Positions 8,907-29,214 of a stretch of 64,000 nucleotides of DNA are shown here, piece by piece. Every line of letters begins with the position of its first letter. Positions within the stretch are counted from its first letter, which is position 1. Location of the stretch: positions 1 to 64,000 of the IMG/VR virus record IMGVR_UViG_3300031994_000044; one strand, written 5' to 3'. The notes below the pieces were generated by a model. The model worked only from the letters and a program-made list of their open reading frames with translations, made no database searches and was not told where the DNA came from. The DNA is from a virus. Its lineage: Duplodnaviria; Caudoviricetes. The translations under genes were made by a program, and so were the position numbers.

Positions 8907-9403
8907 GTTGTAATTACCATTATAAAAAAGATATTCAACAATTGAAACGCTTTCGGAATGCCGTAACTATCGTTGTAATTACCTTTATAAGAAAGGTATT
9001 CAACAATACATCGATACAAGACCTCTACTTCAACAGAGTTGTAATTACCTTTATAAGAAAGGTATTCAACAATACACAACAGAAAAGGAAACGGAAACAA
9101 CACGTTGTAATTACCTTTATAAGAAAGGTATTCAACAATAGGCAATAATAACATACAATTCCAATCAACGTTGTAATTACCTTTATAAGAAAGGTATTCA
9201 ACAATTCAAGACCTATGCTGATGTGTGTACGCTTAGTTGTAATTACCTTTATAAGAAAGGTATTCAACAATAAATGCCGTTCTTGGGGTCTTTTATGTAG
9301 TGTTGTAATTACCTTTATAAGAAAGGTATTCAACAATATCAACTGTAGTCAGGTACATATTATCGACGTTGTAATTACCTTTATAAGAAAGGTATTCAAC
9401 AAT
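8907..9403 (-). CRISPR. CRISPR array, 8 x 36-nt repeats, 7 spacers (29-30 nt)
   Basis: Repeat (minus) ATTGTTGAATACCTTTCTTATAAAGGTAATTACAAC starting at 8907, 8972, 9038, 9104, 9170, 9236, 9302, 9368; the 8907 copy has 3 mismatches (trailer end). Confidence 0.98.
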
Positions 9404-9469
9404 ATGATATTTATAATTTATTAATAAACAAAGTATTATTTAACAATTTTTTATTAAAAAAAGGCATAA

Positions 9470-11764
9470 TTAATCACATATTATTTGATACATATCCTTT
9501 TTTTTGAATATATTAAGTATTGAAGATGGTATTTTCTTTTTAAAAGTATCTTTGATATTATAGAGGGGGTTACCGTATCTATTATTTTCTTTTGTCTTAG
9601 TACACATTGTTAGAAGCAAATCGTTATTTTCGGCTATGTATTTAATATTATTTGCTGCATTAAAGTCAGCATTAAGACCATTTATATGGAATTCTTGTTT
9701 GGTTCTAACTTTGCGTTTGTCTATTAGTTGTAATTGTTTCTTATTATTTTTATCCATGATTTCTTTGACATAGATTTTATGTGTATTGCTATCCATTTGT
9801 GATGTAAAGGCCGCAGGGACAAAAATAACATTCATATTAGTATTATTAGACAATTGCACGAATTTGTCTTTTATGTCAGCAAAACCGATTGCCTTAATAA
9901 CCAGATTCTTAAACCGTTTTTTTTGTATTTCCTTTAAACCATAAACAGAATATGAAATGTCTTTTATGGTTTCGTTTTCATTAAAAATGAAATTATAATA
10001 TTTGGTATTAAAAACTGATTTATCAATTTCTGAATATTTTTTACCTTCAAAGCCATAATATGTCATAAGTGATTTAGCCGTTGGGAATGGTAATCTGTCT
10101 CTTTCAAAATTTGATGAATCAAGGTATTCAAGACCAATAGTATCAAAGCCATTTAGTACAATAACATCATATGCATATTTAATTATATTATCTCTACAGC
10201 CAACAATATCACATTTGACGTTTTCAAGTTTAACTATCAATCCTTTTGCAATATCTGTATTGATAAATGGGTTTTCAAATCTACGAGGGTCCATTGTTTC
10301 TTTTGAATTTGTTGATATATCAGAAAATCCCATTTTGTCATCATATTCATGATTTTTTTCATAGTATTTTTGTTTAAGGATAAAATATGATTTATATTTT
10401 GAACGAAGCATCTTGGTGTAATCAATATATGATGCAATCTTACAATTTTTATCTCTATACTTTTTGGCAAGATTATCAAGAGTTTGGCTAATCGCTATTT
10501 CTCTTTTAAGTAAGGTTTCATCTGTTATTGATACATTATTCTTTTTATCATACTGATTAGAAACACGTTCAAATAGTGATGGAATCTCTAAAAGTCCAAA
10601 AGAAACAAATTTTGCCATTTCAGTATAATAGGCAAGTTCTTCTTTGTTCAAAGTTGAAACAAAGTCTTTATTTTTTAAAAGTTCAACATAGATATTAATA
10701 TAGCCTTTCACTTTCCCGTTATCGGTAATTGAAGTTGCAAGCATTGAATGTTTTGTGTTAATATCAATACCTAATATATTTTTTATTTCTTGCTCTTTTT
10801 TTGAAAAATCTTTTTCGCTTGAGAAAGTAAAGAACAATGTTTTGCCTTTAACTTCAAAAGTTAAATCATATCCATGTTTGGAAGAAATATCTACTAAATC
10901 GACACGGTTTCCATTGTTATCAACCTTAACGGTTTGTCTATTACCCATTAAGTTTATATCATATGGCTTTTTATCTAACACAAGATGAAGAATATAAGAA
11001 GTAAGGCCATGTTTTTTTAATAGCATTTTTTGCATTTGAACAGTCATTGTTTTTCTGTTTCCGTTTCTTCTACAGCCATTGAATGATTTAAGACTTTCGA
11101 CGGCGTGTTTTTCTATTTCTTCATTAATTTCGTTTTTATGTTTAGTGTAATAATCAAATAAGAGTTCTAATCTTTTTATTTTTTCATCATTTGGCGTTTC
11201 ACGATTTTTAAAATAGGTAATTAAATTTTCAAAATCGGTTTCAGATTCAATTTTTTTATTGACAACTTCAAAAATTGTTTGTGTTTTAATTAATTGTTCG
11301 GTTACTGAATTAATGTCTATTTTTGAATATTTAACATTAGGTTTTAAAGTAACAAATTTTGTTCTATAATTACTGATTACATTTTTAACATATCCATTTC
11401 TTCTGAAATATGTATCTCCAAGTCCTAATATATTTTTTCCTTTATATCCATCAGCATTTAAAACTTTAATTGCTTCATACAATGCATTATCAGCATTCTT
11501 TTTTTGTGAAGAATTTAAATTTAATGAAAAAATTTTATATAATGGTAAATCTTTTATATCATCATTTAAGACAAATTTACAATAAACATTTTCTTTATTT
11601 TTAATATAATTTGCCAAATCTCCGATTTTCATTGATGTAAGATTATCACAAATGAAATCGCTGGTTCTATTGTAATAGTTTATGTACTCTTCAATTGCCG
11701 GTTCAAATAAAGACATAATGTCATCAATAGCCACATTCGACTTAAAAACATAAGATTTATTCAT
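9470..11764 (-). CDS. cas12: compact type V CRISPR effector, Cas-lambda-like RuvC nuclease
   Basis: 764 aa adjacent to array; RuvC-I LGIDIN, RuvC-II IGLEYL, RuvC-III NADFNAANNI; PAAFTSQMDS; ATTGTTG...ACAAC repeat resembles Cas-lambda repeats. Confidence 0.88.
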   Translation of the reverse strand: MNKSYVFKSNVAIDDIMSLFEPAIEEYINYYNRTSDFICDNLTSMKIGDLANYIKNKENVYCKFVLNDDIKDLPLYKIFSLNLNSSQKKNADNALYEAIKVLNADGYKGKNILGLGDTYFRRNGYVKNVISNYRTKFVTLKPNVKYSKIDINSVTEQLIKTQTIFEVVNKKIESETDFENLITYFKNRETPNDEKIKRLELLFDYYTKHKNEINEEIEKHAVESLKSFNGCRRNGNRKTMTVQMQKMLLKKHGLTSYILHLVLDKKPYDINLMGNRQTVKVDNNGNRVDLVDISSKHGYDLTFEVKGKTLFFTFSSEKDFSKKEQEIKNILGIDINTKHSMLATSITDNGKVKGYINIYVELLKNKDFVSTLNKEELAYYTEMAKFVSFGLLEIPSLFERVSNQYDKKNNVSITDETLLKREIAISQTLDNLAKKYRDKNCKIASYIDYTKMLRSKYKSYFILKQKYYEKNHEYDDKMGFSDISTNSKETMDPRRFENPFINTDIAKGLIVKLENVKCDIVGCRDNIIKYAYDVIVLNGFDTIGLEYLDSSNFERDRLPFPTAKSLMTYYGFEGKKYSEIDKSVFNTKYYNFIFNENETIKDISYSVYGLKEIQKKRFKNLVIKAIGFADIKDKFVQLSNNTNMNVIFVPAAFTSQMDSNTHKIYVKEIMDKNNKKQLQLIDKRKVRTKQEFHINGLNADFNAANNIKYIAENNDLLLTMCTKTKENNRYGNPLYNIKDTFKKKIPSSILNIFKKKDMYQIICD

Positions 11765-13900: not shown

Positions 13901-14326
13901 TTAGTCATCAATTATATTTCTATAATTGGGAATTATAACATTTCCTTCGTCATCTTTTACAGGCGTTACTTTTTCACTTAAGTTATTAGTATTCCACGCA
14001 TAAATTGTTGCCATATAATTATTAGGAAAATATTCGTTCTCTGCTTCCATAAATGTTGCTAAACTTTTTCTTTGCGAAGAATTTAATACATCTTTATATT
14101 GGCCATGATGAAAGTATTTATTTGTCTTTAATTCAATACAGGTCTCAAATATTTTTCCCTGCGTACTACTATCTCTTAAATGAAAATGTGGGATATGACA
14201 TGGGTCATCTGTACGGACATATATTTCAAATTCATTCTTTTTACCCATATAGCCAACACGGGCCATTTCATTTAACATCTCTTTTTCTTCCAATACACGC
14301 TTAATTGTCTCGGTTACAATTTCCAT
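13901..14326 (-). CDS. hypothetical protein (HxPHFH motif, DUF4160-like)
   Basis: DDPCHIPHFHL. Confidence 0.65.
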   Translation of the reverse strand: MEIVTETIKRVLEEKEMLNEMARVGYMGKKNEFEIYVRTDDPCHIPHFHLRDSSTQGKIFETCIELKTNKYFHHGQYKDVLNSSQRKSLATFMEAENEYFPNNYMATIYAWNTNNLSEKVTPVKDDEGNVIIPNYRNIIDD

Positions 14327-18183: not shown

Positions 18184-19317
18184 TTATTTACAATAAATTT
18201 TTCTTTCAAGCAATTCACCTACTTCAGAGTCGTACACAACATAATATTGGCAAGGTTCCTCACAGGTAAAACCATTTGTCATGGCAAATGTATTATAACC
18301 GATTATACTACCATTAACAACGGCATTTGATATTGAGGTGCATGAATGGAAGTGGCCAAGGAAAATACGGTCCTGATTGAATGTATTATGCCATTTCAAG
18401 GCCAAACGGTTAAGTGCGGGATAAATACCACAAATAGCGCCTGTACCAGTACTCTTTACTTGGAATCCATGACAGAATATAAAGCGTCTGTCGTCATCGG
18501 TATCAACAATAGCCAATTCGCTATCAGGAATATTAAATTCTATAGGTAAATTGGTCAATTTGCATTGTTGCTCGATGTTCTTATACATCATCCACTCATA
18601 ACTCATCTTATAGCCGTTTGAATGCTGTATCTTCTTTGTTGTACGAGAGTGGTTTCCTACAATACCAATGAACAATATCTGCTTAAGTTTGGTTTGCTCA
18701 CACAAATAAGATAAGCCACTATAGATTAGATTTTGTGCCAAAAGAGTTGCCTCTGAAGGACTCAATTGATTTGTTTCTTGAAGTTCCTCATGGATAAAAC
18801 CTGATATGGTATCGCCAAGACTTGCAAAAATCAGATTTTCAACACCATCGGTATTCAAACAATTGGCCAAATTAACAAAGTAATTCTCAATACGCTGCTT
18901 TGCAATATCAATGTTATATTCATTCTTCCCAAGAACTGAAGTCAATGTAACTGTTTCTTCAATATGAGCATCAGAAAACAATGCAATGGCATATTTTTTA
19001 CCGCTAGTCTTCTTTTTTATCTTGAATTCATATTTTTCAAATGGCAATTCCTTAACATTCTTGAAATTTTCATATTCCTTATAAAGAGAATCGTTTATTT
19101 CTTGCTTTTGAGGCTCTTCACTTGAATTAGGTATTGGGTTCTTAAAGGTATAGGTAATACCATTATGTTTGTAAAACCCATTTGTTTTCAATGATTCTGC
19201 AATTGTTTTACGCCTTACAGGTACAACCTTATTAAGTTTACGAATACTTGCATACTCAGTTCCATCACTGCCAATAATAGGTGACGGTACACCATTTCTA
19301 ATTTCAAAATTTGACAT
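18184..19317 (-). CDS. calcineurin-like metallophosphoesterase
   Basis: SDAH, LGDT, VGNHSR, CHG, LGHFH motifs. Confidence 0.85.
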   Translation of the reverse strand: MSNFEIRNGVPSPIIGSDGTEYASIRKLNKVVPVRRKTIAESLKTNGFYKHNGITYTFKNPIPNSSEEPQKQEINDSLYKEYENFKNVKELPFEKYEFKIKKKTSGKKYAIALFSDAHIEETVTLTSVLGKNEYNIDIAKQRIENYFVNLANCLNTDGVENLIFASLGDTISGFIHEELQETNQLSPSEATLLAQNLIYSGLSYLCEQTKLKQILFIGIVGNHSRTTKKIQHSNGYKMSYEWMMYKNIEQQCKLTNLPIEFNIPDSELAIVDTDDDRRFIFCHGFQVKSTGTGAICGIYPALNRLALKWHNTFNQDRIFLGHFHSCTSISNAVVNGSIIGYNTFAMTNGFTCEEPCQYYVVYDSEVGELLERKIYCK

Positions 19318-19415
19318 CTATTAAATTATTTTTTAAAAGTTATTTTTCAATTAATATACAAATACTTTTTATAAAAATCAACATTTACAACTATTTATAG
19401 TAAAATATTTGAGAA

Positions 19416-20063
19416 ATGAACAAAAAAGTAATTAGAATTAACGAAAATCACATAAGAAATCTTGTGAAAGAAGCATTAAGAAAACTCGTCAAAGAAGATA
19501 TTGACGGTTATGATGACGAAAATGAAATAGACCCCGATGATTGGCAATCAGAAGAACCATCAGATTTAGAAGTAAATGATATACTAATGACATTTAAAAG
19601 AGAATCTGAACAATTGGGTTTGAATTTTAGGGACCTTGGAGAAAAAGAATTTGCTGTTACTTGTAAAATAGGCGATAATGGCAAAGCAACCTGTGATATC
19701 AAGCAATTCTTGGAAATGGCTGCAATGTATGTTAATAGAGGTGTATTAAAAATAATTGGCCATGGAATATCCAAAGCAGGTACATGGTATTATAAATACA
19801 GAATTATTAAGGGTCAAATAGTCAGCGAAAGCAAAAAGAAGAGAAAAATAAATGAGGCTGAAGATTATGGATGGATTGTCGAAACAGATGAAGCACAATT
19901 GGCTTATCAATATTTTTGTGAAGAGATGGGTATAGAAGCCGCAAACGAAGCAATAATTAGGGCAATGAGTGATAAAACTTTATCTGAAATAATGGTTTAT
20001 CTTTTAAGAATGTATGATATGGATGGTTGGGAAGAGTATAAAGAGGAACATAGTCAATATTAA
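19416..20063 (+). CDS. hypothetical (probable head-internal) protein
   Basis: N-terminal IRINENHIRNLVKE motif; ACTATTTAT upstream. Confidence 0.75.
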   Translation: MNKKVIRINENHIRNLVKEALRKLVKEDIDGYDDENEIDPDDWQSEEPSDLEVNDILMTFKRESEQLGLNFRDLGEKEFAVTCKIGDNGKATCDIKQFLEMAAMYVNRGVLKIIGHGISKAGTWYYKYRIIKGQIVSESKKKRKINEAEDYGWIVETDEAQLAYQYFCEEMGIEAANEAIIRAMSDKTLSEIMVYLLRMYDMDGWEEYKEEHSQY

Positions 20064-20380
20064 TTAAAAACCAAATACAACAAAATAAAAAAGCCGGCAG
20101 TTTTTGTCGGCTTTTGTGTTTATAACACCTGTGAAATCTGAAAAAAGAAATAAATGATACACATATGGGTTTCACTAACACAGCCCATACACCTTTGCTA
20201 CACTCCCACAAATGTTAGTATTTGCAGTAGCCATTTTCCCGCTGGCCACAAATCATGGTTGTACATTCCATGAGTCACCTCTCATTTATCTCTGTTAATA
20301 CACAGTATATAACCTTCTGAGTTTACTTATCTGTGTCTATCAGCAAGTTCTAGAATATCAAACTGACAAGTTTCTCTGTG

Positions 20381-20471
20381 CGGAGGCAACAGGACTCGAA
20401 CCTGTACGCCGCTTAACGCGACTACTCAGAGTTTAGCAAACTCCTGCCTTACCAATTAGGCTTATGCCTCC
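20381..20471 (-). tRNA. tRNA-Ser(GCT)
   Basis: Cloverleaf, GGAGT-TT GCT AA-ACTCT, long variable arm. Confidence 0.92.
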
Positions 20472-20746
20472 AAAATGCAAGTAGATTTACGAAATAAGGC
20501 TGAGAAACCACACATTAAAGGTGGATACCCGCTATTAGGCACTTGCGCTGTTTTACTCACTTGTTGCTTATCCTCTTACAGCTCTTCACAGAATCGGCTG
20601 CTCTAACACCGACTGGCTTACACCAACTGACACGTTTCATCAAGCGTGGATACTTCTATGCCTCCTGCAACATGACACCATTACCATGGATATCTGTGCC
20701 ATTTACCTTGATTACTCAATGGTCTATACTTGCTATTATTTTAATC

Positions 20747-20823
20747 TGGGTGTCTGCTCAGATTCGAACTGAGGCCTCAACCGCCACAAGGTTGTGTGCT
20801 AAACCACTGACACTACAGACACC
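20747..20823 (-). tRNA. tRNA-His(GTG)
   Basis: CAACC-TT GTG GC-GGTTG, G-1, encoded CCA. Confidence 0.92.
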
Positions 20824-20839
20824 ATAAAATGGATTTCCT

Positions 20840-20924
20840 TGATTGGTATGGGATTCGAACCCTGGTACTATTCCAACCACCTCATTGTGTCGAGGCCCAC
20901 ACTCCCTGTGTGGAGCACCCAATC
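20840..20924 (-). ncRNA. atypical tRNA-like RNA
   Basis: GATTGG/CCAATC terminal helix, 6-bp CCACAC/GTGTGG arm, GGG-TTCGAAT-CCC T-loop; no canonical 7-nt anticodon loop. Confidence 0.5.
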
Positions 20925-21117
20925 GCTGGCATAAGGTCTTTTTCCTTAACATTTCTAAAGCCTTTCGATAATCCATGAATCTACTTGAAATTCGCTAGTT
21001 CAAGGAGTAATATTACCTCTCCCTTCACCCATTTATTTTAACAGTTTAGGGCTTGTACTGCTACCGTTCACGCTATCTGGTTCTACGCCTGTCTTTATAC
21101 TCGTCAGTATTGAGTTG

Positions 21118-21199
21118 TCGGAATGGTGGGATTCGAACCCACACGCCTTTCGGCACAACGTTCTTAGCGTTGCGAGTCTGCCAGTTCCTCCACATTCCG
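21118..21199 (-). tRNA. tRNA-Leu(AAG)
   Basis: CAACG-CT AAG AA-CGTTG, Leu-type variable arm TGCCGAAAGGCGT. Confidence 0.9.
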
Positions 21200-21208
21200 T
21201 AAAAAAAA

Positions 21209-21276
21209 CGGAAAACGGGTTTCAGTGGTACAAATTAACAGTTTGTTACTAAAAATAATTTGCTGTATGTTTTCCT
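21209..21276 (-). ncRNA. ACAGCAA-motif RNA with Asn-like anticodon hairpin
   Basis: GGAAAAC/GTTTTCC closing helix, ATACAGCAA, ACAAA-CT GTT AA-TTTGT, no T arm. Confidence 0.6.
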
Positions 21277-21280
21277 ATTG

Positions 21281-21377
21281 TCGGAACTGTAGGAATCGAA
21301 CCTACCCGAAGTTATTTGTCTAGAATTATTACCTTCACCTACACCATCATAGGCATGTCTCCATCCATCAAATTCCG
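21281..21377 (-). ncRNA. atypical tRNA-like RNA
   Basis: CGGAATT/AGTTCCG acceptor, perfect T arm, 6-nt anticodon-position loop, long variable arm. Confidence 0.55.
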
Positions 21378-21392
21378 ATTTTTTATGATTTG

Positions 21393-21518
21393 CTCCGTGG
21401 GAAAGATTCGAACTTTCGGCTAATGGGTTTACTTTGGTAAATTATATTGCTGTTAATTTTTTTGCCAAAAAATATTTTTTCTACACTCCCATTGCTCTAC
21501 CTCTGAGCTACACACGGA
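21393..21518 (-). ncRNA. tRNA body with about 60-nt ACAGCAA insert replacing the anticodon loop
   Basis: Canonical D arm GCTC/GAGC, ATGGG/CCCAT stem and T arm. Confidence 0.7.
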
Positions 21519-21657
21519 TTACAATTTTCTTCCATAGTCAATGGCTTATGACCGCATTATAGAAAATTAAAAAGACTTTCCTTCAGTTACGCTGAAGCAT
21601 CTGTTTGATTTATTCAGGGACAAATGACGTTACGTTGAGGCGCGACCTCTTAAAATG

Positions 21658-21733
21658 TTGGCCCGACAGGATTTGAACCTGTAAATCTCCTGAGTCAAAG
21701 TCAGGCGTGTTAACCAGGTTACACCACGGGCCA
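21658..21733 (-). tRNA. tRNA-Gln(TTG)
   Basis: CCTGA-CT TTG AC-TCAGG. Confidence 0.92.
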
Positions 21734-21796
21734 TTAAAAATATGTATCATATAATGCATAATTAAAAATATGTATCATATAGTACATATTTAAAAG

Positions 21797-21871
21797 TGGA
21801 CCCAATCAGATTCGAACTGATAAAATGCCGCCGTGCAAGGGCGGTCCTGTACCAATTGAAGGCATAGGCCC
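21797..21871 (-). tRNA. tRNA-Ala(TGC)
   Basis: CCGCC-CT TGC AC-GGCGG, G3:U70. Confidence 0.9.
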
Positions 21872-21963
21872 TTTAAAATGGAGGGGTTTAAAATGAACTT
21901 AATTTGGATGTTCGGAAACTATTCTTGACACATTTGGTACCCTCCCAAGAATAATTAATAATG

Positions 21964-22038
21964 TCGGTTAGGGTGGACTCGAACCACCGACCTCAAACTT
22001 ATCAGGTTTGCCATCTAAACCAACTGATATACTAACCG
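21964..22038 (-). tRNA. tRNA-Ile(GAT)
   Basis: CAAAC-CT GAT AA-GTTTG. Confidence 0.92.
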
Positions 22039-22045
22039 TTGAATG

Positions 22046-22208
22046 TACCCGGTAGGGGATTCGAACCCCTGATTTCAAGGATGGCTTCCTTGCAATGTAT
22101 CGAACATTCTTCATACTCACCATGATTAAAGCAAGGAAAAACTTTTTTCACAGAGAAAAGTAAAACTGTATAAAACCTTGCGTCCTAGGCCAGCTAGACG
22201 AACCGGGC
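22046..22208 (-). tRNA. tRNA-Glu(TTC) with 88-nt intron (22084-22171)
   Basis: Removing insert restores CAAGG-TT TTC AT-CCTTG. Confidence 0.8.
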
Positions 22209-22210
22209 AA

Positions 22211-22660
22211 AAAGCAGCGATTTGGTTCGCTGTCAACCTGCTAAATGCGCTGCCTTAGGCTGCTGCATAAGCAAAAGCATAATTTTCGTTGCCAGTTATT
22301 TTATGGCATCTCGGATGTCTACTTTCATTGTACTCATTAGCAATCAATTCCAAGATGGCCCATATTATTTTTTTTGTCGGATGCCAGGGAGTTGAACCCC
22401 AATTTTAAACCCGAATCAAAATTTTCAAATTACTTGATATTGTACCATGAATCATAAGAACCGTATAACTAGTATGGTTGGTACTCAACATGGCGCACCC
22501 GTTATTAAAACCGTGCTTTCCACGGATTAGACTAAGTTCGCCTTCTTTATACTTCAGAGATATACGTCTCAAGTGCGCCAACTTAGTAAAACCAACACTT
22601 CGTGGACCATAAGGGACTCGAACCCTTGTCTTACTCAACTTTCCTTTGATTATCAACAAC
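22211..22660 (-). ncRNA. ssrA: circularly permuted (two-piece) tmRNA
   Basis: Acceptor piece (T arm plus ATGGTCC-A, about 22660-22603) precedes coding piece (GGGCCAT at 22361; tag GNENYAFAYAAA* 22293-22255); G3:U70. Confidence 0.88.
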
Positions 22661-22670
22661 AAACCGATTG

Positions 22671-22743
22671 TGGGGTGTTATGGAATCGAACCATAGTGAC
22701 AGGTCTGTCGAACCTGCATCCTAAACCGCTAAATGAACTCCCC
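22671..22743 (-). tRNA. tRNA-Val(GAC)-like, atypical (C33)
   Basis: CAGGT-TC GAC AG-ACCTG, A73, one acceptor mismatch. Confidence 0.6.
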
Positions 22744-22873
22744 ATGTAAGAAATTTACATTTCACTATCGTGCCTCCACCATGAGACGCTTGGCGACTTT
22801 ATGTGGCCCGCACTAACTTTTCGTACTTGTTTAAGGTACGTGTGTCCTTCTTTCCTTATATTTTTTAGATTAC

Positions 22874-23002
22874 AGGAATCTATTTATTTTCCATTTCACT
22901 ATGCAGCCATCGGTTCCCCTAAAGCCGCAGTTGGACTCGAACCAACAATCTTTGTTTTGCTTACAAATGTGTTTACCTATTGTAACTTGCTGTTAAATTC
23001 CT
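22874..23002 (-). ncRNA. ACAGCAA-motif RNA with permuted-tRNA (YrlA-like) topology
   Basis: AGGAATTTA/TAGATTCCT closing helix; T arm, loop-closed 7-bp TGCGGCT/GGCTGCA acceptor-like stem, D-like segment. Confidence 0.65.
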
Positions 23003-23012
23003 TTTAATCTAG

Positions 23013-23086
23013 CGGGCCTGACGGGATTCGAACCCGCACCACACGCCGTGACAGGGCGGCATTGTAAACCATTCAACCACAGGCCC
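23013..23086 (-). tRNA. tRNA-Asp(GTC)
   Basis: CCGCC-CT GTC AC-GGCGT. Confidence 0.92.
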
Positions 23087-23279
23087 AATAAAGAAAGGTT
23101 TATGGCATCTTCTTAACTATGCCAACATCTGTTTTAGAGCTCGCAACCTTTCAAACAAAGCTTCCTCGGTACTTCACCACTCACCTCGGTTTAGGTGTAG
23201 TCCTGTCGCTCTACAAGTGCGCTAAATCTTTAATGAATTTAGAAACATGTTCTGACGGTTAAGCGTCATTGTTTTTCTC

Positions 23280-23368
23280 AGAAATCATTTACTGCACCAT
23301 TGCAATCAGCCCATAACGGCTAATATTAGAATCGAACTAATCAAGTTGACATTTGCTGTTAGATTTCT
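23280..23368 (-). ncRNA. ACAGCAA-motif RNA with permuted-tRNA (YrlA-like) topology
   Basis: AGAAATC/GATTTCT closing helix; ATTAG-TTCGATT-CTAAT; ATTAGCC/GGCTGAT; TGCA-ATGG-TGCA. Confidence 0.65.
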
Positions 23369-23377
23369 TAAGTTTAG

Positions 23378-23538
23378 CGGGAGAGGTGGGGTTCGAACCC
23401 ACGACCCACAGATTAGTTCTTGTAGTAAAAGTCGAATTTACTGACCTAGGATGACCGTCAATACAAGAATCAATTTGTTTTCAGAAGTTATTTCTCCTGT
23501 ATACAGTCTGTTGCGCTAACCAGCTACGCTACTCTCCC
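23378..23538 (-). tRNA. tRNA-Asn(GTT) with 87-nt intron (23416-23502)
   Basis: Removing insert restores ACAGA-CT GTT AA-TCTGT. Confidence 0.85.
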
Positions 23539-23546
23539 TTAAAAAA

Positions 23547-23632
23547 CAGGAAACGATATTTATGGAATCGAACCATTTCAATTTTATTTTCAGTAAAATC
23601 TTTAACCTTTTAAAATTTGCTGTATGTTTCCT
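23547..23632 (-). ncRNA. ACAGCAA-motif RNA with Phe-like anticodon arm and T arm
   Basis: AGGAAAC/GTTTCCT; TTTTA-CT GAA AA-TAAAA; ATGG-TTCGATT-CCAT. Confidence 0.6.
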
Positions 23633-23762
23633 TTATTTTTAATTCTTTTATAAATATACAAAAAATAATTTTCTTAAAAAATCAACGGTTCACAATAGAA
23701 CTTCTCACGGTAAAATCCATGGCTTCATTAGGCAAAGCTTCGTTGATTAAGATTTTTTTCAG

Positions 23763-23844
23763 TACCCCAGGTGGGATTCGAACCCACAATGGCTATGCCA
23801 CCACAGCCTAAATGTGGCCCCTATACCATTTCGGGTACTGAGGC
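23763..23844 (-). tRNA. tRNA-Leu(TAG)
   Basis: CCACA-TT TAG GC-TGTGG, long variable arm. Confidence 0.9.
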
Positions 23845-23850
23845 ATATTG

Positions 23851-23921
23851 AGCAGAATATCGGTGTCGAACCGATACCTTGACCTTGGGAAGGTCATATA
23901 CTGCCGCTATACTAATTCTGC
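23851..23921 (-). tRNA. tRNA-Gly(CCC)
   Basis: TGACC-TT CCC AA-GGTCA, U73. Confidence 0.88.
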
Positions 23922-23925
23922 ATTG

Positions 23926-24086
23926 TGGGAAAGGGTGGACTCGAACCACCAGTCTCAAAAGAGAACGGATTGCCAATGTGGTAAATTACGAATTTACGAT
24001 ACTTCATTATTCACATTGGATGGTTTTTACATGTTTACCTTCATGTATTACAGTCCGCGCGGCTACCAATTACCGGTTACTTTCCC
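23926..24086 (-). tRNA. tRNA-Tyr(GTA) with 77-nt intron (23972-24048)
   Basis: Removing insert restores GCGGA-CT GTA AA-TCCGT. Confidence 0.85.
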
Positions 24087-24099
24087 ATTAAAAATCATG

Positions 24100-24171
24100 A
24101 GCCCCCTACCTGAATTGAACAGGTATTTTCGGGTTACAAAGCCGATGTAATAACCATTATACTAAGGAGGC
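24100..24171 (-). tRNA. tRNA-Thr(TGT)
   Basis: TCGGC-TT TGT AA-CCCGA. Confidence 0.85.
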
Positions 24172-24182
24172 AACAAAATAAA

Positions 24183-24243
24183 CGGAAATCCATCAAAAAA
24201 AACATACCATAATTTTTATAAAGATATTGCTGTTGAATTTCCT
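24183..24243 (-). ncRNA. minimal ACAGCAA-motif RNA
   Basis: GGAAATTCA/TGGATTTCC closing helix plus ACAGCAA. Confidence 0.55.
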
Positions 24244-24244
24244 G

Positions 24245-24326
24245 TGGCCAAGGTGGGACTCGAACCCACACGCCTTTCGGCACATGATTTTGAGTCATGG
24301 GTGTCTACCAATTCCACCACTTGGCC
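24245..24326 (-). tRNA. tRNA-Leu(CAA)
   Basis: CATGA-CT CAA AA-TCATG. Confidence 0.92.
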
Positions 24327-24339
24327 ATTGTTAAATTAG

Positions 24340-24459
24340 TCGGGACGTTTGGATTCGAACCAAAACCACGGAAACCCAAATTCATTGCTAAAATATTGCT
24401 GTAAAATTCCGTGTCTGAAATCATAAATGCTACGTGTGCTACCGTTACACCACATCCCA
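24340..24459 (-). ncRNA. tRNA-Pro(TGG)-like RNA with 49-nt ACAGCAA insert in anticodon stem
   Basis: Removing 24384-24432 gives CGGAA-TT TGG GT-TTCCG. Confidence 0.65.
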
Positions 24460-24585
24460 TTAGAAGAGTTTCACTTATGTCCTCTCAGCTGCGTGGGCCC
24501 ACACCCTGAGACGGTTGCTGCACTAAGAAGGAAACACCCAGACGCTCTTCCGAGCGAAAGGAAAACTACTCTACAGCTTTTCACG

Positions 24586-24657
24586 TTGTCTCACCGCGAC
24601 TCGAACACGGACCAAGAGAACCAAAATCTCTTGTGCTAACCATTACACCATGAGACA
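24586..24657 (-). tRNA. tRNA-Gln(TTG), second copy
   Basis: AGAGA-TT TTG GT-TCTCT. Confidence 0.9.
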
Positions 24658-24666
24658 ATTTTAAAG

Positions 24667-24795
24667 TGGTGTATTAGGGAATCGAACCCATTATTAAAGC
24701 CAGTTACTTTGAATTCAATATTAGCTCTTCTCAAATTCTTTTCACGTCACCTCATACTACTTGAATCGGCCGAATTTCATATGAGTTAATACACC
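24667..24795 (-). ncRNA. enlarged tRNA-like RNA
   Basis: GGTGTATTA/TAATACACC terminal helix and GGG-TTCGATT-CCC T-loop, long non-canonical interior. Confidence 0.5.
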
Positions 24796-24799
24796 ATGT

Positions 24800-24930
24800 A
24801 GCTGGGAATTGATGATTCGAACCATCATCTCGGAATTGGAATTTCATTGCTAAAATATTGCTGTTAAATTTCATTGTTCCGACTGAAATTGTTTTGTTTG
24901 CTACGTGTTCTACCCTTAAACTATTCCAGC
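24800..24930 (-). ncRNA. tRNA-Gly(TCC)-like RNA with 58-nt ACAGCAA insert in anticodon stem
   Basis: Removing 24846-24903 gives CGGAA-AT TCC AA-TTCCG. Confidence 0.6.
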
Positions 24931-24945
24931 ATTGAAGAATATATG

Positions 24946-25033
24946 CGGAGGGGGTGGGATTCGAACCCACGGGAGTAGTTAGCTCACACAAGATTTCAAG
25001 TCTAGGCCGTTATGACCACTTCGGCACCCCTCC
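24946..25033 (-). tRNA. tRNA-Ser(TGA)
   Basis: CTAGA-CT TGA AA-TCTTG, long variable arm, G73. Confidence 0.9.
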
Positions 25034-25187
25034 AATAGGCTATATGTTTCACAACATACAACCTTATGTTGTTGTTTTATTTTTCAGATTTCACAAGATG
25101 TCAAAGAACATTTGCATTAACAAATATACAAAGTTTTTTGTTAAAAACAAATTTTTTTTTATTTTTTTTTTCGGCAAGTTATCTCTT

Positions 25188-25203
25188 ATCAAAAACCGTG
25201 CCA
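25188..25203 (-). promoter_or_regulatory. sigma54-like promoter in RNA cluster
   Basis: TGGCACGGTTTTTGAT; further copies 26153-26168 and 28031-28046; TATATTTG (Bacteroidota -7 box) at about 25121-25128. Confidence 0.65.
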
Positions 25204-25211
25204 AACTTTTT

Positions 25212-25285
25212 TGGTGGCGATAGGAAGAGTTGAACTTCCGAATTGGCCTTATGAGAGCCACGTTTTACCGCTAGACTATATCGCC
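25212..25285 (-). tRNA. tRNA-Met/Ile2(CAT)
   Basis: TGGCT-CT CAT AA-GGCCA, encoded CCA. Confidence 0.88.
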
Positions 25286-25295
25286 TTAGCGTTTG

Positions 25296-25369
25296 AGCGG
25301 GTTAAGGGACTCGAACCCTCAAACCTTCTGCATGGCAAGCAGATGCTCTACCAATTGAGCTAAACCCGC
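25296..25369 (-). tRNA. tRNA-Gly(GCC)
   Basis: TCTGC-TT GCC AT-GCAGA. Confidence 0.92.
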
Positions 25370-25373
25370 ATAT

Positions 25374-25544
25374 TTACCATTCCCATCCATCAAATCTTTT
25401 TAATTGTGGCCTAATGTCTTGGTCTATTGGTATTCTTCTAAGTTTTCTATGCCTTTCTTTTTTAACCTTTTTGCGTGAATGATGCCTATTATATGCTTCA
25501 CTATTCATCCATGGTTCAGGTTCATATCCGTATGAAAGTCCCAT
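25374..25544 (-). CDS. small basic protein within tRNA cluster (not in ORF track)
   Basis: 56 aa MGLSYGYEPEPW...RKKVKKERHRKLRR...FDGWEW. Confidence 0.6.
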   Translation of the reverse strand: MGLSYGYEPEPWMNSEAYNRHHSRKKVKKERHRKLRRIPIDQDIRPQLKRFDGWEW

Positions 25545-25572
25545 TTTATTTTATATTTTAAATTTTTAAATG

Positions 25573-26107
25573 TGATGCCGCTGGGAGTCGAACCCAGAAC
25601 CTACAGCTTAGCCTACCACTCTATATTACTATAGCCAAACAAACCATTTGGATGAAAATGTTAAAATGCCTCCTTATTCATCCACTAAGGTACATTTATT
25701 ATTTGTTTGTTGTGGTCTGGACTTGTCTCTTTACCTTATCAGAATTCTTGCAAGTAATGCTTAATCACAAAGTGTTGGATTTCATACCAACAACCTCTTA
25801 CTCCCGCGTAAGTGCTCTATAGAATATTGTAAGCTAACCTTGTTTTAGCACAATTCTGACTTAGGTATCCCCCGTTCAGCCTCTACACGATTATAAGAAG
25901 TGACCATGCTTTATCACTTATTAGATGCCATTTCTGGTTCTTATTTTCGCTCGGCATAGTCCTGGACATTATTGTTTAGTCCACAGCTTTACGTCCTGTT
26001 ACACTAAGGATTTCCGCCGAATTTAGGGGATTCTACCATGGGATTTCTCGCCATAGCACTCCTATTTTTTGAAGGCTGTTGCTCTAATCCAATTGAGCTA
26101 CGGCACC
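25573..26107 (-). tRNA. tRNA-Arg(TCT) interrupted by a group I intron
   Basis: Exons ACAGC-CT T|CT AA-GCTGT. Confidence 0.88.
25612..26071 (-). ncRNA. group I intron (460 nt, no ORF)
   Basis: Inserted after U, ends in G; P-like AAATTCGGCGGAAA, R-like GTAGAGGCTGAACG, S-like AAGAGACAAGTCC. Confidence 0.85.
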
Positions 26108-26176
26108 ATTCTTTCAAAGAACATAATAAATATACAATTAAAATTTCAAATTATCAAATATTATGCCAAACTTTTT

Positions 26177-26980
26177 TTAAAATCTAAATCCTTGTTTAAT
26201 TATTTTATCTTTTTGGATTTTGGCATATGTTCTTGCAATTTTTCGGCCAAAATTATTAATGTTCTTAAGTATTAGATTTTTAGTTAAATTATATTTTTTT
26301 AATTCTTTTTCAAAATTTTCATTATCACTAAGTTCATTATAAATATCAACAATTTCATTATATATTTTGTAACATGGTGTTTTTTTCAAGTTATCATAGG
26401 TGAATACTTCAGGTAATGCCATTACATAAGCGTACATTCCGTTAATATAGCCATCCTGTTCATTCTTTGTACATCCATAGACTAATTTCGCTACTTTTGA
26501 AATAAAATCATTATTATCACTCATATTTGTTATAACTTTTGAATAAACAGAACTGTCAGGAAAATTTCCGCCTATTAAATATTGTTGGTATATGTGTTCA
26601 AACTCATGCTGTATTGTATCCATTACTTCGGTTTTAATTATAGTTCCTGAAACACATGGAATGAATAAGCCTATAACACAATATCTTTTATCAAAACTAC
26701 TCCATCCTTCTGCTTCAACGCCAAATTTATCGTAATATTCTTTTGTATAATAGTTAATTACCTTATATGATATTCCCACATTTATACCAAGTAAATCATA
26801 TTTCAAATATCCATTATATGATGAAAAGAATTTTTCTTTTTCAAAAATTTCCATATTTTCAGAAATATCTTTTTTAAGTATATCAAAAAATTCATTTGTT
26901 TTTTTGGCAATTTCATCAGATATACCAAGTTCTTCCTGTAATATTTTTTTAAATTGAGATTCTGTAATTAAAATTTTCAT
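26177..26980 (-). CDS. hypothetical protein with HExxH motif
   Basis: IQHEFEHIYQ; N-terminal ILITESQFKKIL motif. Confidence 0.75.
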   Translation of the reverse strand: MKILITESQFKKILQEELGISDEIAKKTNEFFDILKKDISENMEIFEKEKFFSSYNGYLKYDLLGINVGISYKVINYYTKEYYDKFGVEAEGWSSFDKRYCVIGLFIPCVSGTIIKTEVMDTIQHEFEHIYQQYLIGGNFPDSSVYSKVITNMSDNNDFISKVAKLVYGCTKNEQDGYINGMYAYVMALPEVFTYDNLKKTPCYKIYNEIVDIYNELSDNENFEKELKKYNLTKNLILKNINNFGRKIARTYAKIQKDKIIKQGFRF

Positions 26981-26999
26981 ATTTTTTAATTATAATTTG

Positions 27000-27071
27000 T
27001 ATGCCAAGAAAGATTTGAACTCTCACTATAACATCCGTAGTGTTATGTGCTATCCGTTACACCATTGGCAC
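27000..27071 (-). tRNA. tRNA-Arg(ACG)
   Basis: TAACA-CT ACG GA-TGTTA. Confidence 0.9.
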
Positions 27072-27080
27072 ATTAATTTG

Positions 27081-27153
27081 TACGCCCGCTGGGACTTGAA
27101 CCCAGGACTCCCACATTAAAAGTGTGGTACTCTACCAACTGAGTTACGAGCGC
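27081..27153 (-). tRNA. tRNA-Lys(TTT)
   Basis: CCACA-CT TTT AA-TGTGG. Confidence 0.93.
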
Positions 27154-27163
27154 ATATTTATTG

Positions 27164-27236
27164 TGGGGAGTGATGGTGCTGACCCATCTTCTTTGGTTTT
27201 TCAGACCAACGCAACAACCGTGTCTGCTAACTCCCC
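27164..27236 (-). tRNA. tRNA-Phe(GAA), atypical T-loop
   Basis: TTGGT-CT GAA AA-ACCAA; T-loop GTCAGCA. Confidence 0.75.
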
Positions 27237-27253
27237 TTAATTGTTATATCAAG

Positions 27254-27327
27254 TCGAGGTGGCGGGACTCGAACCCACGACTTCAGCATCCCAAATGCCG
27301 TGTGCTAGCCAACTGCACCACACCTCG
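27254..27327 (-). tRNA. tRNA-Pro(TGG)
   Basis: CGGCA-TT TGG GA-TGCTG. Confidence 0.92.
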
Positions 27328-27351
27328 TATTATCAAAGAACTATTTATCAG

Positions 27352-27423
27352 AGTCGGCGGAGGGATTTGAACCCACATCGTACTGTTTTGCAGACAGTTA
27401 CCTAACCATTCAGCCACACCGAC
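27352..27423 (-). tRNA. tRNA-Cys(GCA)
   Basis: ACTGT-CT GCA AA-ACAGT, U73. Confidence 0.9.
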
Positions 27424-27430
27424 ATTTTCA

Positions 27431-27506
27431 TCAGTTGGACAGGATTCGAACCTGTGTTTCTTAGCGTCCCGCTTATAGTGTACTAAACCGCTATACGACC
27501 TAACCG
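27431..27506 (-). ncRNA. tRNA-like RNA / pseudo-tRNA, undetermined anticodon
   Basis: Good D and T arms, irregular anticodon arm. Confidence 0.5.
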
Positions 27507-27517
27507 ATGTAATTTTG

Positions 27518-27599
27518 CAAGCAGAACAAGACTCGAACTTGTATCTCACGAATTGGACTCCGTGTGTTTTTCCAAGTGCCTCTTTTAAACTATCTACTC
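27518..27599 (-). ncRNA. tRNA-like RNA / pseudo-tRNA (Trp-like)
   Basis: Perfect T arm, enlarged D loop, non-7-nt loop containing CCA. Confidence 0.5.
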
Positions 27600-27627
27600 T
27601 GTACCGAAGAGCACTCTTCGATATTTG

Positions 27628-27698
27628 CAGGCAGTGAAGGATTCGAACCCTCAACAACGGTTTTGGAGACCGCTATGTTACCATTACACCAACTACCT
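27628..27698 (-). tRNA. tRNA-Trp(CCA)
   Basis: GCGGT-CT CCA AA-ACCGT, G73. Confidence 0.92.
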
Positions 27699-27746
27699 AT
27701 TCTATTTTCAAAGAACCTAATTAAATATACAATTTATTTTTCAATT

Positions 27747-27998
27747 TTACAACTTATTTTTTAATTTTTTTTTATATTCTTCTCTATCTTTATTGGATAG
27801 GAGGGTTTTATTTCTTCCAATGTGCCATTTACCGCATTCAGAACATTTATAAGCCACCATTTTATGGATTGTATTTTCCTTTGTATTTAAAAATCGTGCC
27901 ATTTTCAGGGCTTCTTGTTCTGTGTCAAAAGTTTTCTTTTCTTCAAGTATTCCGTTTGGGCCAATTTTATAATGTGACCTATAATCTCTTTTTGTCAT
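27747..27998 (-). CDS. small zinc-ribbon protein
   Basis: YKCSECGKWHIG. Confidence 0.75.
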   Translation of the reverse strand: MTKRDYRSHYKIGPNGILEEKKTFDTEQEALKMARFLNTKENTIHKMVAYKCSECGKWHIGRNKTLLSNKDREEYKKKLKNKL

Positions 27999-28057
27999 GT
28001 ATTTAAATTTTAATTTCTATTTTCACACTTATCAAAAATTGTGCCAAACTTTTCAAA

Positions 28058-28303
28058 TTATGATAATTCAATTAAATTTTCTTTTTCCATAGCTCTTCTA
28101 ATCCACCTCATTAATATAATGGCCTTATTGTAATAGGGACTAAATGTAGCCGTTTCGCCGCAATCAACTTTATCAGACAAATCAATTTCTAATAGGTATC
28201 TGTTACCTGTGCTTGATGTGATTATATACTCAGCTATACCGCCACTTCTTATGCAGTCAAGTTTTGCGCTACCTGTTACTATTTGTTTTAATGTGTCTTT
28301 CAT
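28058..28303 (-). CDS. hypothetical protein
   Basis: 81 aa, KAIILMRWIRRA. Confidence 0.7.
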   Translation of the reverse strand: MKDTLKQIVTGSAKLDCIRSGGIAEYIITSSTGNRYLLEIDLSDKVDCGETATFSPYYNKAIILMRWIRRAMEKENLIELS

Positions 28304-28666
28304 TATTTTTTGGATTATTTCTTATTATTATTGGGCAATAAAAAAACCTCTGATTTAGTTTTTAGATTGGGAAACTTTCAGAGGTTGGGAATATATTGTG
28401 GTTAGAAACCTATGTGCTTAAATATTTTCAACTGCTCTTCATCTGTTTCCCGTTTGTTTTAAAACACCATTTGCTTTTTGGTGACCATGCAAAAAATGAG
28501 CATTTATAACCTTGGGGGTTATAAGTGTTTGATTTAAATCGTTTAATATTTTGGTTCATTGTTTGCATAATAATTTTTTAAATTGTCGATATTTTACACA
28601 TATAAATATAATATACTTTTAAAAAAGTTAAAAAATTGTTATTTTTTTTTAAAAAAATATTTTTTT

Positions 28667-28903
28667 TTATTGAACTAATTGTATGAATTTTAATGTTTCG
28701 TCTTTTGTATATATAAGATAATCGTCTGAATTATACCAACAGTTATGATGGCAATTATAAAAGGCAATTTCATAATTACCGTTATGTTGGACCAAACATG
28801 GAATTGTTTCCTGGCAATTGGAATTATTTTCCATATGTGGCAAAGTATCAGGAGCATCACACCATAATTGGGTGATGCTCGGATTTTCATTTTTTATCAT
28901 CAT
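28667..28903 (-). CDS. hypothetical protein
   Basis: 78 aa, coupled to upstream stop. Confidence 0.6.
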   Translation of the reverse strand: MMIKNENPSITQLWCDAPDTLPHMENNSNCQETIPCLVQHNGNYEIAFYNCHHNCWYNSDDYLIYTKDETLKFIQLVQ

Positions 28904-29214
28904 TCAAAGTAATCCTCGATTAGTTTATTGATAATGTCAAGTTCAACTCTCAAGTCATTCAATTCAAGTTCATAATTAATTCTATTTCTGGTCCAATCCA
29001 CCATATTAATGTTTTCACCAACGACAAGAGCGTCTGTTGAACGGACAGCCATATCTTCCATGTCAGTAATCTTGGTTTCTATTTCACGGATACGCTTTTC
29101 TGTTTCAAGTTTTTCAGTGTTAAAAGCATCTTGTGCATCTTTTGTGCGCGTTTGGGCTCTTTTTTCGATAAGTTCAGAGCCATTTGTTGTCAACAATTTT
29201 TCAAATTTACTCAT
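28900..29214 (-). CDS. coiled-coil hypothetical protein
   Basis: 104 aa. Confidence 0.75.
   Translation of the reverse strand: MSKFEKLLTTNGSELIEKRAQTRTKDAQDAFNTEKLETEKRIREIETKITDMEDMAVRSTDALVVGENINMVDWTRNRINYELELNDLRVELDIINKLIEDYFE

Follow-up and report, generated by a model that had tools for sequence, protein, structure and literature searches.

Short transfer RNA introns with a tRNA-like 3′ half in a huge rumen phage: members of the Lak megaphage intron family with a fixed 3′ junction geometry

In bacteria and their viruses, the introns of transfer RNA (tRNA) genes are generally held to be of the self-splicing kind only. Group I introns are more than 200 nucleotides (nt) long and are built around a P3–P9 core; they are inserted after a U and have G as their last base; bulge-helix-bulge (BHB) introns of the archaeal and eukaryal type are cut by a splicing endonuclease and joined by RtcB or Trl1. 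The closest described elements for the present purpose are the ‘enigmatic’ tRNA introns of Lak megaphages, the sequences of which are given in Table S6 of Devoto et al. (2019, PMC6784885; also Fig. 4). Its authors note that one of these introns may encode a tRNA, and some tRNAs are found in an interrupted and an uninterrupted form while being equal in all else (Devoto et al., 2019, PMC6784885). In that paper we found no account of a common architecture, a splice-site rule or a mechanism, and no follow-up of the Lak introns was found in the literature. Here we analyse three short inserts in the tRNA-Glu, tRNA-Asn and tRNA-Tyr genes of a 64,000-nt stretch of phage DNA (the window; positions 1 to 64,000 of the IMG/VR virus record IMGVR_UViG_3300031994_000044). 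An original prediction made from the window's letters had set them apart as a shared class of short introns. The class is not new: by sequence and structure they are new members of the family already in print, which was left structurally undescribed and unexplained there.

The window forms the first 64 kilobases (kb) of a record of 106,307 base pairs (bp), for which CheckV gives a completeness of 29%, implying a phage genome of roughly 360 kb. DNA near-identical to the record is contained in sheep-gut metagenomes. A dense tRNA array occupies 20380-27700 on the minus strand, with 22 ordinary tRNAs according to ARAGORN, which reports six more, interrupted tRNA genes once introns are allowed. Since ARAGORN misnames two of the three genes considered here (Glu is called ‘Ile’ and Tyr ‘Asp’), the junctions were set by comparison with relatives of the phage. 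Three of these (G001–G003) were found through the SbcD-like open reading frame (ORF) at 18184-19317 of the window; they carry 30-33 tRNAs per array, and G001 is the closest. The three split genes and their introns are as follows.

22045-22208, minus strand: tRNA-Glu(UUC), with exon 1 at 22172-22208 and exon 2 at 22045-22083
22084-22171, minus strand: Glu intron, 88 nt, between tRNA positions 35 and 36
23377-23538, minus strand: tRNA-Asn(GUU), with exon 1 at 23503-23538 and exon 2 at 23377-23415
23416-23502, minus strand: Asn intron, 87 nt, between positions 35 and 36
23925-24086, minus strand: tRNA-Tyr(GUA), with exon 1 at 24049-24086 and exon 2 at 23925-23971
23972-24048, minus strand: Tyr intron, 77 nt, between positions 36 and 37 (37/38 gives the same product)

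Removal of the inserts in silico restores canonical 7-nt anticodon loops, UUUUCAU for Glu, CUGUUAA for Asn and CUGUAAA for Tyr. The identities Glu, Asn and Tyr are supported by intronless homologues in related phages, which have exactly these loops. The Glu exons are near-equal to the intronless Glu(UUC) gene of G003 (L164:7949-8021), with an identical loop after splicing; the Asn gene is spanned whole by the Rfam tRNA model at 52.5 bits, and the tRNA-Tyr is of bacterial type, belonging to class II with a long variable arm. Given the product, the 35/36 junctions of Glu and Asn are unique, whereas that of Tyr may be written in the two ways listed. All three introns start with ATACA and have C as the last base; these ends, together with the sizes and positions, are as originally claimed once the minus strand is read.

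The genes had also been described as the only Glu, Asn and Tyr tRNAs. This holds for the whole 106-kb record in that no uninterrupted Glu, Asn or Tyr gene was found in it and the split Glu and Tyr genes are its sole genes of these types, but a second Asn-like gene is present at 21392-21518 (minus strand), with a different, 51-nt insert. That gene and a tRNA-like gene at 24339-24459 (minus strand) have inserts of 49-51 nt with a common ACAGCAAUAU motif and form a separate class.

The introns of the window share a common plan made of two modules. The 5′ module consists of N-U-A, a hairpin (P1) and an A-rich linker; the 3′ module is a helix (P2) stacked on a T-arm-like hairpin and followed by a final C. 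P1 has 4-6 bp, and U2 is usually able to extend it, leaving one unpaired base past the 5′ junction. The linker measures 9-12 nt, and the joining stretch that follows the 5′ strand of P2 measures 14-22 nt. P2 comprises 8 bp, to which a U-G pair adds a ninth in Glu, and its 3′ strand abuts a hairpin with a stem of 4-5 bp and a 7-nt TTCGNNN loop. The modules are located as follows.

22140-22171, minus strand: Glu 5′ module, with AUA, P1 ACAG/CUGU (extendable by U-G) and the A-rich linker
22084-22139, minus strand: Glu tRNA-like module, with a 9-bp P2 (22131-22139 with 22085-22093) and GG in the joining stretch
22094-22108, minus strand: Glu T-hairpin, loop TTCGATA; final C at 22084
23470-23502, minus strand: Asn 5′ module, with AUA, P1 CAGGAG/CUUCUG and the A-rich linker
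23416-23469, minus strand: Asn tRNA-like module, with an 8-bp P2 (23462-23469 with 23417-23424)
23425-23441, minus strand: Asn T-hairpin, loop TTCGACT; final C at 23416
24020-24048, minus strand: Tyr 5′ module, with A, P1 UACAUG/CAUGUA and the A-rich linker
23972-24019, minus strand: Tyr tRNA-like module, with an 8-bp P2 (24012-24019 with 23973-23980)
23981-23997, minus strand: Tyr T-hairpin, loop TTCGTAA; final C at 23972

The three 8-bp helices quoted in the original prediction were exact, each abutting a hairpin with the TTCGNNN loop. Its statement that the 3′ junction lies 1-2 nt past the helix was right as to the closeness but not as to the variation: the distance is 1 nt in all three, the Glu helix being 9 bp long through its U-G pair.

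Chance origin of the 3′-module matches is excluded. With a strict descriptor of the module (a 13-bp stack of P2 and T-stem, a T(T/C)CG loop and the final C), exactly three matches were obtained in the 106-kb record, each ending at the inferred 3′ junction. The same descriptor gave 0.8 matches per megabase over 6.1 megabases of unrelated DNA, and for each intron none of 5000 dinucleotide shuffles passed. The inserts form a real common class, as had been proposed. A pseudoknot between the 5′ end of the intron and either the 5′ strand of P2 or an internal GUAU was also considered; it reaches 9 bp in the Asn intron of the window only, is not conserved and was rejected.

The location in the anticodon loop, and a Tyr junction that can be written as 37/38, might suggest overlooked group I introns or BHB introns of the archaeal or eukaryal type. 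Like group I introns of bacterial and phage tRNAs, the family introns are mobile and sit in the anticodon loop of bacterial-type tRNAs; unlike them, they are only 74-93 nt long, have no P3–P9 core and end in C rather than G. In the window the introns measure 77-88 nt, C is their last base, A is the last base of the 5′ exon of Tyr, and no Rfam match was obtained. Group II features (5′ GUGYG, 3′ AY, domain V) were likewise not found: the introns start with AUACA, end in C, are far too short and have no Rfam match. With BHB introns they share shortness, a presumed protein dependence and perhaps sealing by a ligase, but they differ in having no BHB motif, no endonuclease gene, a bacterial-type host and sites set by the helices of the intron. 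A BHB-compatible helix is possible in one of 13 members, the splicing endonuclease family PF01974 is absent from five phage records (the control search detected it in four archaea), and the class II tRNA-Tyr is bacterial in type. These observations contradict the group I and BHB explanations, to which we attach almost no probability, and bear out the original view that the inserts are too short for group I or II and show no BHB.

The wider family was found by pattern searches of IMG/VR, with metagenome contigs added; the first pattern used, GTAAATTCG...TTTAC, gave matches by chance only. The same architecture is present in 10 further introns of other uncultured phages, those of Lak megaphages among them. 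In all, the plan is kept in the 13 introns that are available by reference, on at least six phage contigs, and in the Lak introns of Table S6. The introns are 74-93 nt long, and the eight tRNA types that carry them are Glu, Asn, Tyr, Thr, Lys, Arg, Phe and Gly. Five members come from the 235-kb record G005, namely those in Asn, Tyr, Thr, Lys and Arg; its close relative L209 has members in Phe and Tyr, and others are present on the 6-kb contig G006 and on the metagenome contigs L218, L265 and L231/L307. A blastn search of cultured phages with 23377-24086 gave a tRNA-Leu as the sole match.

Covariance models provided further evidence for the family. MAFFT failed to align P2 over all members, and the model was seeded from three similar introns and then iterated. 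Model R1, trained only on three introns of G005 and L209 and on none from the window, was searched with filters off. Its top two matches in the 3-kb locus were the Tyr (20 bits) and Asn (18.5 bits) introns of the window, recovered end to end with exact borders; the covariance search suggested in the original prediction thus finds two of its introns with foreign training only. A second model, R2, scored the same introns at 54.1 bits (Tyr) and 47.5 bits (Asn) and recovered the untrained members Lak A1 (42.7 bits), L265 (27.3 bits) and G006 (19.3 bits). The Glu intron, also untrained, was found end to end at 22084-22171 with exact ends, at a weak 19.9 bits. A scan of G001–G003 with R2 gave no members of the class; one match in G001 was rejected as false, lying in coding DNA.

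In an alignment of eight rows (A7), 99.2% of cells are paired and 16 of 16 pairs are changed on both sides; the fitting of this alignment to the model biases these figures somewhat towards the structure. None of 500 shuffles reached this level of covariation, and slid controls paired at about 40%.

The intron of L231/L307 equals the Lak megaphage A1/C1 intron of Table S6 base for base. N-U-A, P1, the A-rich linker, a tRNA-like domain and the final C are all present in the Lak Phe, Gly and Thr introns. The Phe intron has the P1 loop AGUAAA, a P2 of 9 bp and a T-stem of 5 bp, and the Gly intron has an 8+5+C arrangement. The Thr intron, at 114 nt, runs from UUA through P1 and the A-rich linker into a complete cloverleaf. 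According to Devoto et al. (2019, PMC6784885), the tRNAscan call for the Lak Thr intron is one base away from its real position, in agreement with the junction rule derived here. The window and Lak introns thus share family and plan, and the covariance models connect them; the window copies differ in residing in an unrelated phage lineage, with no common proteins, and in interrupting Glu, Asn and Tyr.

Two further observations concern these arrays. When the junction rule is applied to the published Lak tRNA-Tyr(GTA) with its intron at 37/38 (L231:2100-2264), an Asn(GUU) gene with the intron at 35/36 results; A37 follows from this reading, and the variable loop of the gene is short, so that the Lak ‘Tyr’ gene is probably an Asn gene. 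In L209, the anticodon-loop insert of 13964-14129 resembles a complete small tRNA lacking the P1 leader, another type of intron within the same array.

Comparison of G005 with L209 demonstrates mobility. The introns of G005 Tyr and L209 Phe are about 90% identical, with a compensatory change from G-C to A-U in the T-stem, and such near-identity in different tRNAs means that the introns move. The L209 Tyr gene has the exons and the P1 and linker of G005 Tyr, but carries a long, class-II-like tRNA domain. Furthermore, Thr, Lys, Arg and Asn are intronless in L209 where G005 has introns. Between the arrays of the window's record (G000) and of G005/L209 no common protein was found, so the family crosses phage lineages.

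Movement among tRNA genes, and the TnpB gene in the G005 array, could alternatively indicate a small non-autonomous mobile element that has simply disrupted the tRNA genes and left them dead. The exons, however, show no decay, every copy lies exactly within an anticodon loop, and compensatory changes conserve the structure. Moreover, terminal inverted repeats are missing and the copies share no target sequence. We regard this explanation as very improbable.

The 3′ junction follows a simple rule. In all 13 introns available by reference it lies 14 nt past the end of the 7-nt T-loop (counted as 5+8+1, 4+9+1 or 3+9+2), and the last intron base is C in every one. This geometry can be read against the tRNA genes of the phages themselves. 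In the record, N73-C74 is encoded in 21 of 22 tRNA genes and CCA in one only. Across nine arrays (including L161, L163, L164, L185, L207, L209, L218 and L231), about 95% of 165 tRNA genes have N73-C74 without CCA, a bias that suggests 3′ processing after C74 or a need for C74. Positions -1 and 73 are able to pair in 103 of the 165. Since the phage's own genes encode N73-C74 and -1 can pair with 73, P2 (7 bp plus one) with the final C copies the acceptor end of a pre-tRNA, and the 3′ junction falls where the conservation of the phages' own tRNA genes ends. The loop has the form T(T/C)CGNNN, closed by G-C in most members and by A-U in the Asn and Tyr introns of the window, and a D-loop-like GG occurs in the joining stretch of most members. 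The 3′ half is a mimic of the tRNA acceptor and T-arm, as had been proposed, and its end coincides with the site at which a tRNA 3′-end endonuclease would cut, the final C corresponding to C74.

The sites of insertion vary among tRNAs, being 33/34 in Arg, 35/36 in Asn, Glu and Phe, and 36/37 in Thr, Lys and Tyr; what fixes the cuts is therefore the intron, not the interrupted tRNA. The 3′ splice-site rule with its C74 match, the varying insertion sites and the mobility are new here.

Such a mimic within a longer RNA has precedents. mascRNA/MALAT1 and other embedded tRNA-like elements are freed by RNase P and RNase Z; there too the mimic directs tRNA end-processing enzymes, but the flanks are not rejoined, whereas in the phage genes a tRNA can form only by rejoining. 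Alternatively, the insert itself might be the product, RNase P and RNase Z releasing a small tRNA-shaped RNA from a carrier tRNA that is never rejoined. Stand-alone genes for an acceptor-stem and T-arm minihelix with the shape of the intron 3′ module do occur outside tRNAs (L162 16325-16398, minus strand, in G002; L207:11368-11414 in G005), many tRNA-mimic RNAs are encoded in the same arrays, and the Lak Thr insert is a whole cloverleaf. Against this, the exons are intact with perfect loops in all members, the inserts are restricted to anticodon loops, and the record has no Glu and Tyr genes besides the interrupted ones; moreover, tRNAs that are equal in all else are known in both forms, with the insert and intronless (Devoto et al., 2019, PMC6784885). 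We consider it unlikely that the insert is the product.

We give an even chance to the reading that the inserts are genuine mobile tRNA introns of the Lak family, with excision most likely through a 3′ cut of RNase Z type and sealing by an RNA ligase. The analysis shows the architecture, the membership in the family, the covariation, the fixed 3′ geometry and the mobility; splicing itself, and the enzymes responsible for it, we infer. Because the intron carries a tRNA mimic, the 3′ cut would be made by a tRNA 3′-maturation enzyme that measures from the T-loop: an endonuclease of RNase Z type may bind the elbow of the mimic and cut after the final C, freeing exon 2. RNase P could cut at the border of linker and P2, a cut made probable by the resemblance of the A-rich linker to an RNase P leader. 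Another nuclease would cut 1-3 nt upstream of P1, guided by P1 and U2-A3. The anticodon loop might then be sealed by an ATP-dependent RNA ligase, a phage PF09414 enzyme, or else by the RtcB of the host; hydrolytic cuts would leave 3′-OH and 5′-P ends, which suit a PF09414 ligase.

The 5′ junction is found 1-3 nt upstream of P1, before the invariant U2-A3; RNase P would be expected to cut some 30 nt further downstream. The original prediction of tRNA-end nucleases plus a ligase accordingly stands for the 3′ junction, where it is strengthened, whereas the 5′ junction is not accounted for by RNase P and RNase Z, and the pathway as a whole is only proposed. RNase E/G-type enzymes favour U at +2 and are one guess for the 5′ cut. 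The inserts might also, as the original prediction suggested, shield the anticodons from host nucleases.

A 5′ cut that no enzyme explains could instead be the work of the RNA itself, as a new small self-cleaving or self-splicing ribozyme with the tRNA-like fold and the A-rich junction as its catalytic core. This idea is favoured by the conservation of the 5′ N-U-A and the 3′ C and by the position of the two splice sites, which meet in a single three-way junction whose A-rich strand is conserved. Roughly two thirds of each intron, however, is a plain tRNA mimic in which the conserved bases are only the tRNA-like ones, the joining stretch ranges from 12 nt to a full cloverleaf, and the proposed pseudoknots are not conserved. 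The Rfam models of hammerhead, hepatitis delta virus, twister, pistol, hatchet and hairpin ribozymes gave no match at E <= 1 in 19000-29000. A ribozyme is hence rather unlikely.

Several observations weigh against excision by tRNA-end enzymes and a ligase. Apart from the 5′ cut with no known enzyme, placed near P1, the mimicry is imperfect: the stack of acceptor and T-stem has 13 bp (8+5 or 9+4) instead of the canonical 12, the Tyr mimic has neither A58 nor GG, the G006 intron has a 2-nt tail, and the Lak Phe intron has 15 nt, not 14, from T-loop to junction. C74 is reported to be unfavourable to the RNase Z of Bacillus. Genes for a ligase, RtcB or a splicing endonuclease were not found in the 106 kb of the record, which is 29% of the genome. 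Lastly, no spliced molecule was seen in the RNA data, from three sheep-gut metatranscriptome runs and one DNA run mapped as contigs on 20300-27800, which cover the tRNA array at low depth. An RNA contig (23385-23649) covers the Asn gene in unspliced form, and among the 15 listed of 65 joints none is at an intron border. One RNA contig (run X7) bridges 23965 to 24060 through 17 other letters. Rather than a spliced product, it represents an intronless tRNA-Tyr homologue that has the same outer arms but differs in the anticodon stem, and its presumed source is a related phage of the same rumen.

As to the ligase gene that the original prediction had proposed to look for, relatives do have one. 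The tRNA array of G005 contains an RNA ligase gene of family PF09414 (L207:8638-9309), with 56% identity to one in G001; by sequence, the G005 ligase has no relative among solved structures. At L207:8638-10590 (G005), in the middle of the array, this gene is directly followed by a TnpB/IS605 OrfB gene. RtcB was detected in the Bacteroides control genome; it was not found in the phage records searched, and T4 Rnl1 was not found in a search made without a positive control. In phage T4, Pnk and Rnl1 repair anticodon-loop breaks made by a host defence nuclease. A phage ligase would in both cases seal a break in the anticodon loop, and in huge phages like the present one RNA ligase genes are located within the tRNA array or close to it; the cases differ in that the break results from a defence nuclease in T4 and from intron removal here, and in that the ligase belongs to PF09414 and not to the Rnl1 family.

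Other features of the record stand apart from the intron family. A tRNA-Arg(UCU)-like gene at 25573-26107 (minus strand) has a 460-nt insert (25612-26071) between positions 34 and 35. Its borders are group-I-like, with the 5′ exon ending in U and the insert in G, and it matches no Rfam family at E <= 10. RNA contigs identical to 25669-26058 have a depth of about 200 to more than 1000, with depth bins reaching about 10,000; no other part of the array comes near such values. For the ORF at 26177-26980 inside the array, the search gave neither relatives nor a family. A weak match to the permuted transfer-messenger RNA model is present at 22255-22657 (minus strand), scoring 37 bits against a gathering score of 47. 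In the region of 8971-9404 and 9470-11764 (minus strand), a CRISPR-like array with a 66-nt period and 6.6 copies adjoins an ORF of 764 amino acids without a match in Pfam or PHROG.

The family is short, widespread, mobile and built from tRNA mimics, and has been without an explanation since 2019. Its explicit rules, namely the two-module plan, the T-loop plus 14 nt and the final C equivalent to C74, make the mechanism testable. They also correct the tRNA annotation of huge phages, in which junctions are not at 37/38 and standard finders miss or misname genes. If tRNA-trimming enzymes and a ligase remove these introns, this would be a new way of RNA splicing in bacteria. We tentatively propose, as a possibility somewhat short of even, a third route of tRNA splicing next to group I self-splicing and the BHB endonuclease route, in which a mobile, modular intron carrying a pre-tRNA mimic would be cut after a C74-like base by end-maturation enzymes and the tRNA resealed by a phage RNA-repair ligase. 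If this is true, the introns would exploit, and perhaps depend on, the defence of the phage against anticodon nucleases.

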